Origin: Escherichia phage PMBT16 | Sequence record: PP554575 | Strand: one strand, 5' to 3' | Length of the DNA: 64,000 bases | Shown: in pieces, positions 18,326 through 24,622 of the stretch | Position numbering within the stretch: position 1 is the first letter of the stretch | Layout: every line of letters starts with the position of its first letter | Program-made: the position numbers and the translations under genes | Notes under the pieces: generated by a model | The model's input: the letters and a program-made list of their open reading frames with translations, nothing else | What the model was told of the DNA's origin: nothing | Database searches by the model: none

Positions 18326-19807
18326 TTACTTAGCGTACTCGATTAATTCCACAGTTTTCCCAAAGCTCGGGATATAATTTTTATTATATCCCTCAGTGAG
18401 GACCCATAGAGTATCGTACTTTTTCCACTTGTTGTCAACAGCCTTTTGTTCAAAGTTATGCTCAAAGTATAGGTCGGTCAGGACGATGACATCTTTTGCA
18501 TTTGGTATGTTGGCATCCAGATACTCGAACACGCAAGCAGCTGTTGTGCCCCATGTTGAGTGGACCTCATAGTTGATCATCTCGTCTATGTTGCCGCGAG
18601 TGTATACTTTAACCTCTCCAACCTCAGTTGACCAACAGAACATTGTAACCTTAAACTCTTTATACAGATTGCACAATCCGGTGATTTCATTGAACATTTT
18701 CTTTAAAGTTCTTTGAGAGATCGAGCCAGAAACGTCTAAAGCCACCACAATATCTATAGTGTTTTCCGGATTACGACCAGGAACAATAACGTGCTGGTTC
18801 TTGTTTATAGCCCCAACTTTTCGCATTGTGCTGGTCAAAGACCCAGATCGGCGACCAGGTTTTCTGTAGGTCAGTTCGGCCTTTCTTTTAGACAACATAC
18901 GTTGCTTAATGATGTCTATATAGTTGATTACAGGCTTACCTCTGTTCTTGACAAACTCACGCACCGCCTCAGGGCAACGGCCTCCGGACGCTTGCATTGC
19001 TGCCTCCAGCATATCACCAGAGTCCTGCATGGCCTGATCTTTATCAGATTGGCTGATTACAGGTTGTGGCTGATCATACCCCATAGCCTTTCCAAGATTA
19101 TCACTGGTGCCACCGTTCCCACTCATGTGATCATCGGTTTGTCGCTTATCACTTTGAGAGTTCTCACCTTTACCGTTCTTACTTTTACCGTTATTCTGAT
19201 CTCTTTGCTTATCAAGAACTGCATAAACGTTCTCAGCAATCCATCCATGAAACTTCATGTCGCAGTAGCAGCTGGCTAAGAAGCCAAAAGGCTTACCTTT
19301 CATGAACGTAGTGCTTTTCCCCTTCGGGAAGAAAACACAAGGAGGTTTGCTAAAGTCAACCACAAGGCCTGTGTTGATAACGTGATCACAAGCAATATTG
19401 AACAGTTCCGGCTCAAAGCTTTTACCACGGACTAGGTGATCACAGATAATATGCCCCACCTCATGTGACAGAAGGAAGGCCACCTCTTTCACAGATTTTG
19501 GGGAATAGAAAACTTCAGCCATCTCAAACTGCTCGTCAGTTAGAGAAGCCTTAAGAATAGCCTTGCGTTCATCAGCCAATCCCATAATGAACTCAGGACT
19601 GTAATAGATGCGTTTATGGTCGGTTGCCATGGTGGAGCACCATGTGTGGTTTTCTACGAACTGCAACCCTGACAGTAGTGTGCCATAAAACGGCAGCTTT
19701 TCAAGGAGATACATACGTGCAGCCTGCAACATTCTCAGGGCATCATCTTTCTGCGAGGCAATGATTTCTGAACTTCTGCTATCCATTAAAACTCCAGAAG
19801 GGGCCAT
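18326..19807 (-). CDS. vWA-domain protein with N-terminal HExxH metallopeptidase-like domain (DUF2201-like, MoxR partner type)
   Basis: HEVGHIICDH (HExxH zinc-binding motif) in N-terminal half; VVALDVSGSIS (DxSGS MIDAS motif of von Willebrand A domains) in C-terminal half. Confidence 0.6.
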   Translation of the reverse strand: MAPSGVLMDSRSSEIIASQKDDALRMLQAARMYLLEKLPFYGTLLSGLQFVENHTWCSTMATDHKRIYYSPEFIMGLADERKAILKASLTDEQFEMAEVFYSPKSVKEVAFLLSHEVGHIICDHLVRGKSFEPELFNIACDHVINTGLVVDFSKPPCVFFPKGKSTTFMKGKPFGFLASCYCDMKFHGWIAENVYAVLDKQRDQNNGKSKNGKGENSQSDKRQTDDHMSGNGGTSDNLGKAMGYDQPQPVISQSDKDQAMQDSGDMLEAAMQASGGRCPEAVREFVKNRGKPVINYIDIIKQRMLSKRKAELTYRKPGRRSGSLTSTMRKVGAINKNQHVIVPGRNPENTIDIVVALDVSGSISQRTLKKMFNEITGLCNLYKEFKVTMFCWSTEVGEVKVYTRGNIDEMINYEVHSTWGTTAACVFEYLDANIPNAKDVIVLTDLYFEHNFEQKAVDNKWKKYDTLWVLTEGYNKNYIPSFGKTVELIEYAK

Positions 19808-19826
19808 TGGCCCCTGTCATTATTTA
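19805..19826 (-). terminator. Possible attenuator/terminator hairpin between minus-strand genes
   Basis: Perfect palindrome AGGGGCCATTGGCCCCT; on the minus strand followed by TCTGGAGTTTT; weak T-tract. Confidence 0.3.
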
Positions 19827-20863
19827 ACGTGTTTGAAAATACCTGCCAACTCGGTCATTGTCATGCGGGTGGTCTTCATAAGATCTGTCATAGCTTTCTC
19901 CATAATTGGAGATACTACCATAAAGTTTCCTTTAGTGAAACCTTTATTCCAGTCGGTCACCAACAGGGGTTTAAGTCCAGCTCCAAGACGTTCACCAGTT
20001 AAAGCACAGCATTTGCGAATATACGAACTCTTAAATTTGCTGAACGACAGATCAACTTTCATACCTACATCGTAGAACGTTTGACAATAGAAAGTGTAAG
20101 CTTTGGCAATCTCAACATCATCAGGTAGTGCAGGAACCTCTTCTGTAAGCTCCTCTTCGACCTCCTGAGTCTCTTTTTCCTCTTCATGCACCTGTTGCGT
20201 CATTTCTTCAATCTCTTCTGTGATAGGCTCGTTTACAATGTCGGAAATGTGCTTCTTGGGTGCACGATAAGTAACTTTAGACATCGGTAGCATATCTTCC
20301 TCCTCTTCTTCGTCAAAGAGTGCTAGTTTATCCTCTTCCGTTCCATATTGCAAGATGAAATCTTCAAAAGTATAATCACCTTTCAATTTCTCCATACGCT
20401 CTTCGCTCAGGTGGAGCATCATCTGCTGGACAATTTTTCGATCAGTTTCGTCTTTAATCAAGACTGCAGTCTTTTTATCTACCAGATAGTCCTTTAGAGA
20501 GTTGCATCTCAATCCTACCACACAACAGTTATCAACCGCATAAGGACCTTCATCATCTATCCGCTCCAGAGATGGGTAGAAAGGATTCCCCAGCCCGTTT
20601 TCATCTGTGTGCATGTCAAAAGGTATAAGGGTATAGTCGCATACTCCATCTCCTAAAAGTTTTTTACCAAATAGGAGGTATTCTTCCCATGACAGGTCGA
20701 ACTCTATATCTCGTTTCCGTGCGTTATTCTGTTTGCGTCTATATTTTTTGAGCAAGCGCTCTAACTCTTCTGGTGTATAATATTTTTCAAGATTCATGAG
20801 TCGTCTCTCGTGCTCTGTAAGTGAAGAAATCGTATCAATTGTCTCAACAGATGTCAACATCAA
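19820..20863 (-). CDS. Fusion ORF: N-terminal HNH_3-like (degenerate) module plus acidic C-terminal module beginning MSKVTYRA
   Basis: N-terminal segment ERIDDEGPYAVDNCCVVGLRCN resembles the HNH_3 core with His replaced by Arg; internal RBS-like GAGGAGG precedes the internal MLPMSKVTYRA; Glu-rich tail. Confidence 0.45.
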   Translation of the reverse strand: MMLTSVETIDTISSLTEHERRLMNLEKYYTPEELERLLKKYRRKQNNARKRDIEFDLSWEEYLLFGKKLLGDGVCDYTLIPFDMHTDENGLGNPFYPSLERIDDEGPYAVDNCCVVGLRCNSLKDYLVDKKTAVLIKDETDRKIVQQMMLHLSEERMEKLKGDYTFEDFILQYGTEEDKLALFDEEEEEDMLPMSKVTYRAPKKHISDIVNEPITEEIEEMTQQVHEEEKETQEVEEELTEEVPALPDDVEIAKAYTFYCQTFYDVGMKVDLSFSKFKSSYIRKCCALTGERLGAGLKPLLVTDWNKGFTKGNFMVVSPIMEKAMTDLMKTTRMTMTELAGIFKHVK

Positions 20864-20871
20864 AAACGTGT

Positions 20872-23124: not shown

Positions 23125-23168
23125 TGGGCAGGAATGGCGGCAAGGATGCTGCTTAAGGAGTAGTAGAG

Positions 23169-23438
23169 ATGTTATACCAGCAATATGAACTTCGTGCAGA
23201 AAAAGAGTTAAATTTTGACAAAGATATTCACAGATATTATTATGGGAAAGTTAGAGGGAAAGCAAGAAAGTGTACTCCAACACTCTTTTATGCCAGCAGA
23301 CGACTAGCGCCAGAAGAGGCAACAGCAGAAAGGGTTGCGTACAACTGGAGAGTCACGTATGATATTGACAGATTCGATGTGATATCTGTTTTGGAAAACT
23401 TTGAAAACACTTACACACAAGTAGAGGACTTTTACTAA
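23169..23438 (+). CDS. Hypothetical protein (89 aa)
   Basis: RBS AAGGAG upstream. Confidence 0.45.
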   Translation: MLYQQYELRAEKELNFDKDIHRYYYGKVRGKARKCTPTLFYASRRLAPEEATAERVAYNWRVTYDIDRFDVISVLENFENTYTQVEDFY

Positions 23439-24622
23439 TGTCAAGAAACGTATTCGAAAGTGGTCAAATCACTGTCCGTGAGTTGCCAGCTATTATTCAG
23501 TTTGCCCAACGTCATAGCCGATCTGTCCTAATTTTGGGACCAATGGGTGTGGGTAAAAGCCAGGTGATGAAGCAGATCGCTGATAATATGTTCGGTGAGC
23601 GAGATGACAACCTTGTTGACGTGCGACTGTCAGATAAAGATCCTGCCGACTTATCTGGGCTACCTATCCCTGTAGAAGCGGATGGAACTACACGTACAGT
23701 GTTTGCAATTCCAGAATTTTGGCCTGCGGATCCTGACTGGAGCGGAATTATCTTTCTGGATGAGCTCACTCATGCAGATAACTACCTGCAAAAGGTTGCA
23801 ATGCAAATTATGCTTGACCACAAGTGCGGCACCTATGCATTCCCTAAGGGTTCTGTTTTTGTGGCTGCGGGTAACCGTTCTACAGATGGTGCGGTTCTTT
23901 CGGCGCTCGAAGCCCCTCTGGCTAACCGTTTTATCATTGTAGAGGTTACAAGCAATGCAGAGGTGTTTATTGAGGACTACGCATTCCTTAATGGGGTGCA
24001 TTCCTCTGTAATTGGATATTTGAAAAGAGTTCCCTCAGCTATTGATAATTATGAGGCTATGGCTGAGATTAATTGTCCATCTTTTGCCACACCGCGATCT
24101 TGGGTTGCTGCATCTGACATCTTGCACGATTTTGACAGCGGTATTATTTCTGACGCTATGGCCCGTGTTCTTCTACAAGGTGCTATTGGTCACACTGCAG
24201 CGGTAGAGATCTGGACTTACCACACCAAGAAACGTAATTTACCGGAAATCGGTCGGATTATGGCAGGTGGCTGCAAAGAATACGTAGGTCCTAAGCAGCC
24301 AGACATTTTGTGGATTCTTGGATCTGAAGGTTGTATCGCTATTCGCAATATGATGGAAAATGCAAGTATCTCCGACGAAGATCTTGTTAGCTGTGTGGCA
24401 AACTTCCTCGATTTCCTTTGGGAAAATTTCAAGGACGAGAACCGAGATTTTGTATTCTCAGTCTTTATGGCGATGATGAAACCTAACGCCTTAGGAAATG
24501 CCTTGCTTATCGGTAAAGGGCGTGACAAGATTGTTGCTCAGTTGATCAAAGCATATCCAAACCTGATGAAGATTGTAAAAGAGTTTGGTGAAGAGTTTAG
24601 CGCCATTTTGGCTAAAGCTTAA
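23438..24622 (+). CDS. MoxR/CbbQ-like AAA+ ATPase
   Basis: Walker A ILGPMGVGKSQ, Walker B IIFLDELTHAD, sensor-like AAGNR ... ANRF, as in MoxR-family AAA+ proteins (CobS-like phage ATPases). Confidence 0.65.
   Translation: MSRNVFESGQITVRELPAIIQFAQRHSRSVLILGPMGVGKSQVMKQIADNMFGERDDNLVDVRLSDKDPADLSGLPIPVEADGTTRTVFAIPEFWPADPDWSGIIFLDELTHADNYLQKVAMQIMLDHKCGTYAFPKGSVFVAAGNRSTDGAVLSALEAPLANRFIIVEVTSNAEVFIEDYAFLNGVHSSVIGYLKRVPSAIDNYEAMAEINCPSFATPRSWVAASDILHDFDSGIISDAMARVLLQGAIGHTAAVEIWTYHTKKRNLPEIGRIMAGGCKEYVGPKQPDILWILGSEGCIAIRNMMENASISDEDLVSCVANFLDFLWENFKDENRDFVFSVFMAMMKPNALGNALLIGKGRDKIVAQLIKAYPNLMKIVKEFGEEFSAILAKA

Follow-up and report, generated by a model that had tools for sequence, protein, structure and literature searches.

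The locus described here raises the question of whether two proteins that are encoded apart and on opposite strands still work as one system, and what such a system would do for the phage. In the window, the 64,000 nt stretch of Escherichia phage PMBT16 (sequence record PP554575) that was analysed, a minus-strand gene encodes a protein with a predicted zincin metallopeptidase domain and a von Willebrand factor A (vWA) domain, hereafter the vWA-peptidase, and a plus-strand gene encodes an AAA+ ATPase of the MoxR class. The initial annotation, made from the sequence alone, had reported the two open reading frames (ORFs) on these strands about 3.6 kb apart, and both were recovered as described with a spacing of ~3.6 kb (19787/19808 to 23437). 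Our preferred reading, which we hold with some confidence but well short of certainty, is that the two proteins form one conserved remodelling machine, an early accessory anti-defence device whose genes were split by an inversion and were both retained. Coordinates are collected in Table 1.

Pairing and domain architecture of the two proteins

To survey gene neighbourhoods, hidden Markov models of both families were used on 80 viral contigs with an ATPase profile match, supplemented with the contexts of individual homologues. The resulting viral tally held 92 ATPase loci, with both genes visible in 80. The vWA-peptidase gene lay directly downstream of the ATPase gene on the same strand at 70 loci, on the same strand with an insert of 0.5–1.4 kb at three and on the opposite strand at seven. 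No vWA gene was visible at the other 12, ten of which are on contigs that stop no more than 400 nt past the ATPase gene, one of which has no upstream sequence in which a split partner could lie and one of which has only 1 kb left. The seven opposite-strand loci all belong to the window lineage, the window itself included (Vequintavirinae relatives, with an ATPase identity of at least 49 %), so the remark in the initial annotation that a split, divergent order is atypical is borne out by 7 of the 80 loci. A scan of bacteria with a profile built from the bacterial vWA subgroup gave 80 chromosomal loci, mostly from sulfur-oxidizing Gammaproteobacteria, and in all 73 with room upstream the DUF2201 gene was closely preceded by the ATPase gene in the same orientation. 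Because the homologues are adjacent and co-oriented in 70/80 viral loci and in 73/73 of these bacterial loci, the ATPase and vWA-peptidase are, on gene neighbourhood, a genuine functional pair, as had been proposed, and would be expected to interact physically in this phage.

The two families are shared by rV5-like, N4-like, Aeromonas 2L372-like and jumbo phages, with 785 phage records matching the ATPase and 514 matching the vWA-peptidase, and the pair is among the more widespread non-structural modules of large virulent phages. Sequence identity to the window proteins falls in parallel for the ATPase and the vWA-peptidase, at 73/62, 53/43, 49/42, 42/37 and 35/33 %. In the phage database, 117 Vequintavirus records had the ATPase and 118 the vWA-peptidase at an identity of at least 95 %, which indicates that both genes have been retained together across the genus.

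For the minus-strand protein, an HExxH metallopeptidase-like N-terminus combined with a vWA domain and its metal ion-dependent adhesion site (MIDAS) had been suggested. Pfam searches supported this, with matches to DUF2201_N (PF13203, 'putative metallopeptidase'; E=4e-28, 99.1 bits against a cut-off of 23.2) and to DUF2201 (PF09967, 'VWA-like'; E=3e-11, 43.8 bits against a cut-off of 26.4). Across 27 homologues, with identities down to 20 %, no variation was observed at the zincin residues H115, E116, H119, H124 and D141, the last of which sits in an NIAxDxxIN helix downstream of HExxH, or at the MIDAS residues D358, S360, S362, T421 and D445. The Rossmann-like vWA fold was recovered with a complete MIDAS set (DxSxS, T and D), its DVSGS encoded by 18722–18736(−), and the best structural match was the NorQ-bound NorD VWA domain. 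Sequence searches of the PDB gave no match for the vWA-peptidase, and a profile search with the N-terminal domain gave weak matches only, to the minimal zincin MJ1213 (E=0.015) and the M48 peptidases BepA and HtpX. These motifs and matches identify the protein as a fusion of a zincin (HExxH) domain with a vWA domain whose MIDAS is complete, and peptidase activity is predicted for it. A basic Y-R-x-P-x-R-R segment preceding the vWA domain is likewise conserved, with R319 and R320 nearly invariant.

The ORF given for this protein in the initial annotation, 18326..19807, was right in gene and strand and probably 21 nt too long at its start. The start is most likely ATG 19786, since a GGAG ribosome-binding site lies 5 nt upstream of it and the 486-amino-acid product agrees with database records, whereas ATG 19807 sits in the loop of a GC-rich hairpin and lacks a ribosome-binding site. 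The product has also been called an 'HNH endonuclease' (phrog_1314, GenBank) and, in one record, a 'DNA repair ATPase'; both labels were rejected, as neither an HNH nor an ATPase domain was detectable. The phrog_1314 label 'HNH endonuclease' has spread to many N4-like, rV5-like and jumbo phage records.

The plus-strand protein had been called MoxR/CbbQ-like. Alone against Pfam it gave generic AAA matches below threshold (AAA_5 at 16.7 bits, cut-off 22), and direct searches of NCBIfam and the PDB, with Pfam and PADLOC also searched, gave P-loop-level matches to ClpB, ClpC and p97, which by themselves would mis-assign it; profile and structure searches were therefore needed. The protein matches phrog_1297 (E=2e-110), and its homologues at ~35 % identity (E~1e-44) carry AAA_3, AAA_5 and bpMoxR domains (PF07726, PF07728 and PF20030). 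A profile of 15 ATPase sequences matched the Midasin AAA domains best among PDB entries (E=1.5e-9). In the AlphaFold model (predicted local distance difference test score 82.6), strands 75–81 and 84–90 follow a short helix at 69–73 and would form the helix-2-insert hairpin (75–90), a pre-sensor-1 hairpin is predicted at ~129–135 ahead of strand 140–145, and Foldseek ranks 1–17 were NorQ or CbbQ2 in all 17 cases. On the domains of its homologues, the Midasin profile match, the modelled hairpins and the NorQ/CbbQ2 structural matches, the window protein is assigned to the MoxR-class AAA+ ATPases of the helix-2-insert clade, with hexamer formation and ATPase activity predicted. The domain searches proposed as a check of the initial annotation (AAA_5/CbbQ, VWA, DUF2201) thus agreed with it, directly and above cut-offs for DUF2201 and by way of homologues, profile and structure for the ATPase. 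Walker A (GPMGVGKS, 23537–23560) and Walker B (IIFLDE, 23747–23764) are both present on the plus strand; G37, G39, K40, S41, D108, E109, N146 (sensor 1) and R164 (arginine finger) are unvaried in 15 homologues, among which a DVRLSxxxPxDxxGxP motif is also conserved. A C-terminal helical region of ~120 residues has no NorQ counterpart (TM-score 0.45 by query, 0.65 by target).

Several described systems share this architecture. In phage N4, gp24 is an AAA protein and gp25 a vWFA protein (PMC2784036), and no reported function for either turned up in the literature searched. The N4-like phages (Schitoviridae) have the same two families and are reached by tblastn with the window proteins at 22–28 % identity. 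In N4-like YH30, the ATPase (YH30_74, 'ATPase') is followed by the vWA-peptidase (YH30_73, 'N4 gp25-like protein') in the early/middle non-structural region, but as co-oriented neighbours with a 0.5 kb gap, unlike the window pair at 3.6 kb on opposite strands. The group 2.2 jumbo phages encode a MoxR ATPase with a metallopeptidase-vWA cochaperone, proposed to act in virion assembly and structural-protein processing (Iyer 2021, PMC7824862). The domain architecture is the same and jumbo phages of ~350 kb are among the tblastn matches of both window proteins; in contrast to the assembly role proposed there, the rV5-like genes are dispensable for virions, with the ATPase required to evade a defence system. 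As far as the descriptions of Acidianus two-tailed virus go, p618 (MoxR) and p892 (vWA) are also a viral MoxR-vWA pair, acting in tail assembly (PMC7824862, PMC7159879), but are described with a structural/assembly role and with no peptidase domain (PMC7824862).

In bacteria, operons of DUF2201_N/DUF2201 and AAA_5 genes, such as that of Sulfurivermis fontis (AP018724), hold a homologous pair in the same order and orientation with HExxH and MIDAS kept; unlike the phage pair, they are chromosomal, from sulfur-oxidizing Gammaproteobacteria and others, lack any phage context and have ~22 % identity to the window protein. The S. fontis pair (1856864–1870111) lies among HSP15, thioredoxin, ferrochelatase and Lon genes, with a conserved gene for a 370-amino-acid protein immediately downstream. 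This proteostasis/cofactor neighbourhood may be a clue to what the family does in cells.

Among solved structures, the nearest are NorQ/NorD and CbbQ. In NorQD, a finger of the vWA protein reaches into the pore of the ATPase, and the adaptor is twisted by ATP hydrolysis so that the client is remodelled; the authors of these structures suggest that AAA+ proteins that have vWA partners dock in this way in general (PMC13036017). NorQ/NorD and CbbQ/CbbO are, like the predicted window complex, two-component systems that combine a MoxR hexamer with a vWA(MIDAS) adaptor. NorD, however, aligns to the vWA part only, and the window protein is shorter than NorD or CbbO and carries the invariant HExxH zincin domain; the extra C-terminal region sets the phage ATPase apart from NorQ, and the clients differ. 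A metal-cofactor insertase or enzyme activase of the NorQ/NorD, CbbQ/CbbO, CobS/CobT or BchI/BchD type, serving a metalloenzyme needed in some hosts, would be consistent with these structures and with the location of the Sulfurivermis pair two genes upstream of the ferrochelatase gene. The insertase and activase partners named in the cited literature, however, are not described there with a zincin domain, the pair has no conserved enzyme neighbour in phages (the Dda/PIF1-type helicase gene being a neighbour in Vequintavirinae only), and the knockout phenotype given below was traced to a defence system of two cloned genes rather than to any metabolic condition. Because the peptidase motif is invariant and the phenotype maps in this way, we regard such a role as unlikely, to the point of giving it little weight.

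Origin of the split and the divergent control region

To determine how the two genes came to be separated, the order of four synteny markers was compared: the vWA-peptidase, the ATPase, a SleB-type hydrolase and the Dda/PIF1-type helicase. Two relatives, the phiTE-like L006 (35 % ATPase identity) and L087 (42 %), have the order helicase(−) SleB(−) / ATPase(+) vWA(+), with four small genes already lying between the ATPase and the vWA-peptidase in L087. The window, L009 (53 %) and L088 (49 %) have the order vWA(−) X(−) / ATPase(+) SleB(+) helicase(+), in which the ATPase block alone is flipped relative to the other markers. One local inversion, with breakpoints between the partners and at the bidirectional intergenic region, fits this difference. 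Since unrelated phages and bacteria all have adjacent genes, adjacency is, judged from gene order, the ancestral state and the split is derived and confined to the window lineage. The split itself is a minor evolutionary curiosity, which indicates that the module tolerates the loss of operon linkage. In L088 an IS605-family TnpB/Cas12f-like gene (8081–9178) lies between the divergent promoter region and the ATPase, so the interval made by the inversion accepts mobile-element insertions.

The leftward unit consists of the Srd-like gene followed by the vWA-peptidase gene, and the rightward unit of six small genes followed by the ATPase gene. Between the two units, the 142 bp intergenic region holds back-to-back sigma-70-like matches, TTGACT-17-TATAGT on the plus strand (20871–20899) and TTGACA-17-TACGAT with an extended TG on the minus strand (20857–20829). 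With these candidate promoters flanked by the two units, 'divergently transcribed' was a fair description of the pair. Because both genes still leave the same 142 bp region after the inversion, their co-expression may have been preserved. The pair would probably be expressed early, given the divergent sigma-70-like matches and the neighbouring rIIA/rIIB, Srd-like anti-sigma and helicase genes. The best sigma-70-like match of the region (TTGACA-17-TATTAT, 11/12, 23215–23243) lies further downstream, within the 89-amino-acid ORF that precedes the ATPase gene, and could give the ATPase a promoter of its own.

Proposed role of the pair in escape from DS-28

Mutant data are available for a close relative, Bas54 (phage MaxBurger), which is 97.3 % identical to the window locus and was mutagenized in the HIDEN-SEQ preprint (10.1101/2025.11.20.689424). 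The window ATPase is 100 % identical to Bas54_0063 and to the rV5 'MoxR ATPase', and the window vWA-peptidase is 98.4 % identical to Bas54_0055. In the K-12 transposon data, 60 of 64 TA sites were struck in 0063 and 81 of 86 in 0055, and both genes are non-essential, as is the helicase gene 0068 (10.1101/2025.11.20.689424). In the uropathogenic strain CFE311, from which the defence system DS-28 derives, insertions were strongly depleted in 0063 (log2 fold change −7.23, q=0), in the helicase gene 0068 (−6.32, q=0) and in 0140, which encodes a 99-amino-acid protein (−5.48, q=0); 0055 was depleted to a lesser degree (−2.20, q=0.009), and 0056–0062 and 0064–0067 were unaffected, with no significant change (10.1101/2025.11.20.689424). 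Clean knockouts of 0063 and of 0140 are each specifically sensitive to DS-28, and these are the only Bas54 genes shown by knockout to be needed against it (10.1101/2025.11.20.689424). DS-28 itself consists of two genes, for a hypothetical protein and a HEPN family nuclease (PMC13092281 supplement).

By the published data on the identical Bas54_0063, the ATPase has an anti-defence function, and for the vWA-peptidase the evidence is no more than suggestive. The statement in the initial annotation that such pairs are functionally uncharacterized in phages therefore needs qualification, as it does not hold for the ATPase, needed against DS-28 as Bas54_0063, or for the architecture, which has been described (PMC7824862). 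Two further phage transposon-mutagenesis studies and the CRISPRi-ART work did not mention the pair, and the weaker depletion of 0055 stands in the supplement of the preprint and is not discussed by its authors.

The same data bear on an assembly role. The pair could be a virion-assembly chaperone with a processing protease, a role put forward for the same architecture in the group 2.2 jumbo phages on the model of the tail-assembly MoxR-vWA pair of Acidianus two-tailed virus (PMC7824862), and in general MoxR-vWA systems serve as chaperones of assembly or maturation (PMC7159879). Since both genes take insertions at 94 % of their TA sites on K-12, however, the pair is dispensable for infective virions. 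Its genomic position is likewise that of the early host-takeover/replication region, beside rII, helicase and anti-sigma-like genes, the N4-like pair lies between the genes for RNA polymerase (RNAP) II and those for helicase and DNA polymerase, and Bas54 has a separate prohead protease. For this phage, non-essentiality and genomic position largely refute an assembly role, which we consider very improbable; the pair is accessory and essential neither for replication nor for virion assembly.

In the mechanism that we propose for the pair, a hexameric MoxR-class AAA+ ATPase would be the motor subunit and the vWA-peptidase the adaptor and effector, with its C-terminal vWA domain docking on the ATPase ring, the MIDAS metal site holding an acidic residue of the target and the N-terminal zincin domain able to cut that target. 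In an rV5-like ancestor, the ATPase block would have been inverted across the bidirectional early promoter region. The outcome would be ATP-driven remodelling, probably followed by proteolysis, of a DS-28 component or of a phage or host protein that triggers DS-28. The vWA-peptidase would presumably contribute to DS-28 escape through its putative protease activity, and either the defence component or the trigger would be its likely target. A more specific version is put forward tentatively, as a possibility: the ATPase, the zincin-vWA protein and perhaps the 99-amino-acid protein as specificity adaptor would make up an ATP-dependent counter-defence protease, by which a MIDAS-recognized DS-28 component or signal is unfolded or extracted and then cleaved.

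Several points weigh against a joint anti-defence machine. Depletion in CFE311 was ~5-fold for 0055 and more than 100-fold for 0063, 0055 is one among 27/227 significant genes, and the clean knockouts sensitive to DS-28 cover 0063 and 0140. The CFE311 values stand on a sheet headed 'CFE303', whose command line names the 311 library. A finger insertion like that of NorD is not evident within the compact predicted vWA domain, and the mode of docking may for this reason differ from that of NorD. Promoter-like matches, defined by consensus only, numbered 21 against 15.9 ± 4.2 in shuffled sequence, which is a small excess. As to the source of the values, the sheet 'resampling_K-12_vs_CFE303' of supplementary file 9 (Data S6) has CFE311 inputs, and a later sheet repeats its values.

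Since the depletion of 0055 is far weaker and one among 27 genes, the ATPase may not need the vWA-peptidase against DS-28. This would be the case if the ATPase, after the inversion, had acquired the 99-amino-acid protein as a new partner with which to neutralize DS-28, leaving the vWA-peptidase with a separate function or vestigial. Given how far the ATPase phenotype exceeds that of the vWA-peptidase, such an uncoupling is a rival to be taken seriously, and it agrees with the similar depletion of 0063 and 0140 in CFE311, the sensitivity of their clean knockouts and the location of the ATPase and vWA-peptidase genes on separate transcription units. The 99-amino-acid protein, however, is restricted to the genus Vequintavirus (117 records) and so cannot be the ancestral partner, whereas the split with both genes kept reaches down to 49–53 % ATPase identity. 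The zincin and MIDAS residues are still invariant in the split lineage, the two proteins have diverged in parallel, and 0055 was significantly depleted in CFE311 when its neighbours were all unaffected. On balance we find uncoupling rather doubtful and favour the joint machine, in which the 99-amino-acid protein may be a lineage-specific adaptor or cofactor of the ATPase or may be an independent inhibitor.

A further alternative concerns DNA replication. In this reading the pair would help replication or repair as a protease, assisted by an AAA+ ATPase, that removes protein roadblocks or DNA–protein adducts from phage DNA during its replication, and escape from DS-28 would be an indirect effect. 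This would be consistent with the N4-like gene order of ATPase, gp25-like, helicase and DNA polymerase, with uncultured phages in which a 5'-3' exonuclease gene is followed by the pair and then by thymidylate synthase, and with the conditional essentiality in CFE311 of the adjacent helicase Bas54_0068. Domain library scans, on the other hand, detected no DNA-binding domain in either protein, and the helicase is not a conserved neighbour beyond the Vequintavirinae. The recognizable domain of DS-28 is moreover that of a HEPN nuclease. HEPN nucleases are usually RNases, and we know of no link of DS-28 to DNA damage. We therefore judge a replication or repair role to be improbable.

The helicase was also considered as a universal third partner of the pair, on the basis of its conditional essentiality in CFE311 and its position adjoining the pair in N4-like YH30. 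Its synteny with the ATPase extends across the whole Vequintavirinae lineage and to no other phage group, and this candidate was rejected because a helicase gene of this type was near the pair in that lineage only (10/92 loci).

The genes, their family, their domain architecture and the ATPase phenotype were already known from databases and the literature. What is added here is the view of the split as a derived, lineage-specific inversion of a two-gene module that is otherwise near-invariant, a connection of N4 gp24/gp25 with the jumbo-phage pair and with the anti-DS-28 gene of Bas54, the corrected start of the vWA-peptidase and the observation that published data hold a weaker phenotype for the partner gene. 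The Bas54 screen hit thereby becomes a concrete, testable model with named catalytic residues, and, for the rV5-group phage-therapy candidates, helps to account for differences in host range among clinical E. coli with DS-28. If the counter-defence protease is real, it would provide a function for the N4 gp24/gp25 and DUF2201 families, which span hundreds of phage records and bacteria, and would be a distinctive anti-defence mechanism in which a phage-encoded AAA+ machine is coupled to a protease.

Neighbouring genes and other features of the window

Table 1. Features of the window relevant to the ATPase and vWA-peptidase pair
Feature	Position	Strand	Details
MIDAS residues D358-x-S360-x-S362, T421 and D445 of the vWA domain	18473..18736	−	from translation
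Zincin-metallopeptidase and vWA(MIDAS) gene	18326..19786	−	486 amino acids; Bas54_0055 orthologue; N4 gp25 family
Zincin active-site motif HEVGHIICDH (HExxH and third His)	19436..19465	−	from translation
GC-rich palindromic hairpin AGGGGCC-AAT-GGCCCCT	19799..19815	−	perfect 7 bp stem, 6 G-C pairs
Srd-like gene, annotated 'anti-sigma factor'	19820..20797/20863	−	325–347 amino acids
Intergenic region between leftward and rightward units	20798..20939		142 bp; limits as in the magaca and MaxBurger annotation
89-amino-acid ORF	23169..23438	+	stop overlaps ATPase start codon (ATGA)
MoxR-class AAA+ ATPase gene	23438..24622	+	394 amino acids; N4 gp24 family
Dda/PIF1-type helicase gene, bas54_0068 orthologue	28757..30127	+	phrog_325
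bas54_0140 orthologue, 99 amino acids	61437..61736	−	99 % identity by tblastn; phrog_12072

By megablast, positions 18000–25000 matched 121 phage records at 90–99 % identity, 114 of them with a query coverage of at least 80 %, and the closest, at 98.3 %, was the rV5/FFH2-type Vequintavirus Escherichia phage magaca. These records label the ATPase gene 'MoxR ATPase' or 'ATPase' and the vWA-peptidase gene 'metallopeptidase' or 'VWA-like domain containing protein', with the latter gene sometimes mislabelled 'HNH endonuclease'.

The Srd-like gene has an ambiguous start, at TTG 20863 or at the annotated ATG 20797. Its product matches phrog_3118 ('HNH endonuclease') and, more weakly, PHROGs described as 'decoy of host sigma70' and 'Srd anti-sigma factor', and a Pfam search with it gave no match. 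At 87 % identity to Bas54_0056 it varies more than any other gene of the locus, and its occurrence is confined to the split lineage. The hairpin at 19799–19815 lies between the stop of this gene and the ribosome-binding site of the vWA-peptidase gene, holds the upstream in-frame ATG 19807, and may be an attenuator or partial terminator, a processing site or a stabilizer.

The 89-amino-acid ORF upstream of the ATPase gene is called 'ATPase' or 'MoxR ATPase' in several GenBank records and in phrog_13164, yet has no ATPase domain. It was considered as a part of the system and rejected: it is absent in L009, has no Bas54 phenotype, and its label looks like annotation carry-over.

Sixteen unannotated 'Campylobacter phage' records (MG0656xx; host given as Campylobacter jejuni for 15) are 96–98 % identical to the locus. 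These are probably mislabelled or contaminant assemblies and not true Campylobacter phages.

At ~58200–60300, about 2 kb of non-coding sequence at a strand switch is rich in direct and inverted repeats, including an exact 20 nt repeat 274 nt apart, an 18 nt perfect inverted repeat and a 34 nt repeat pair. This region could be a replication origin or the source of a non-coding RNA.

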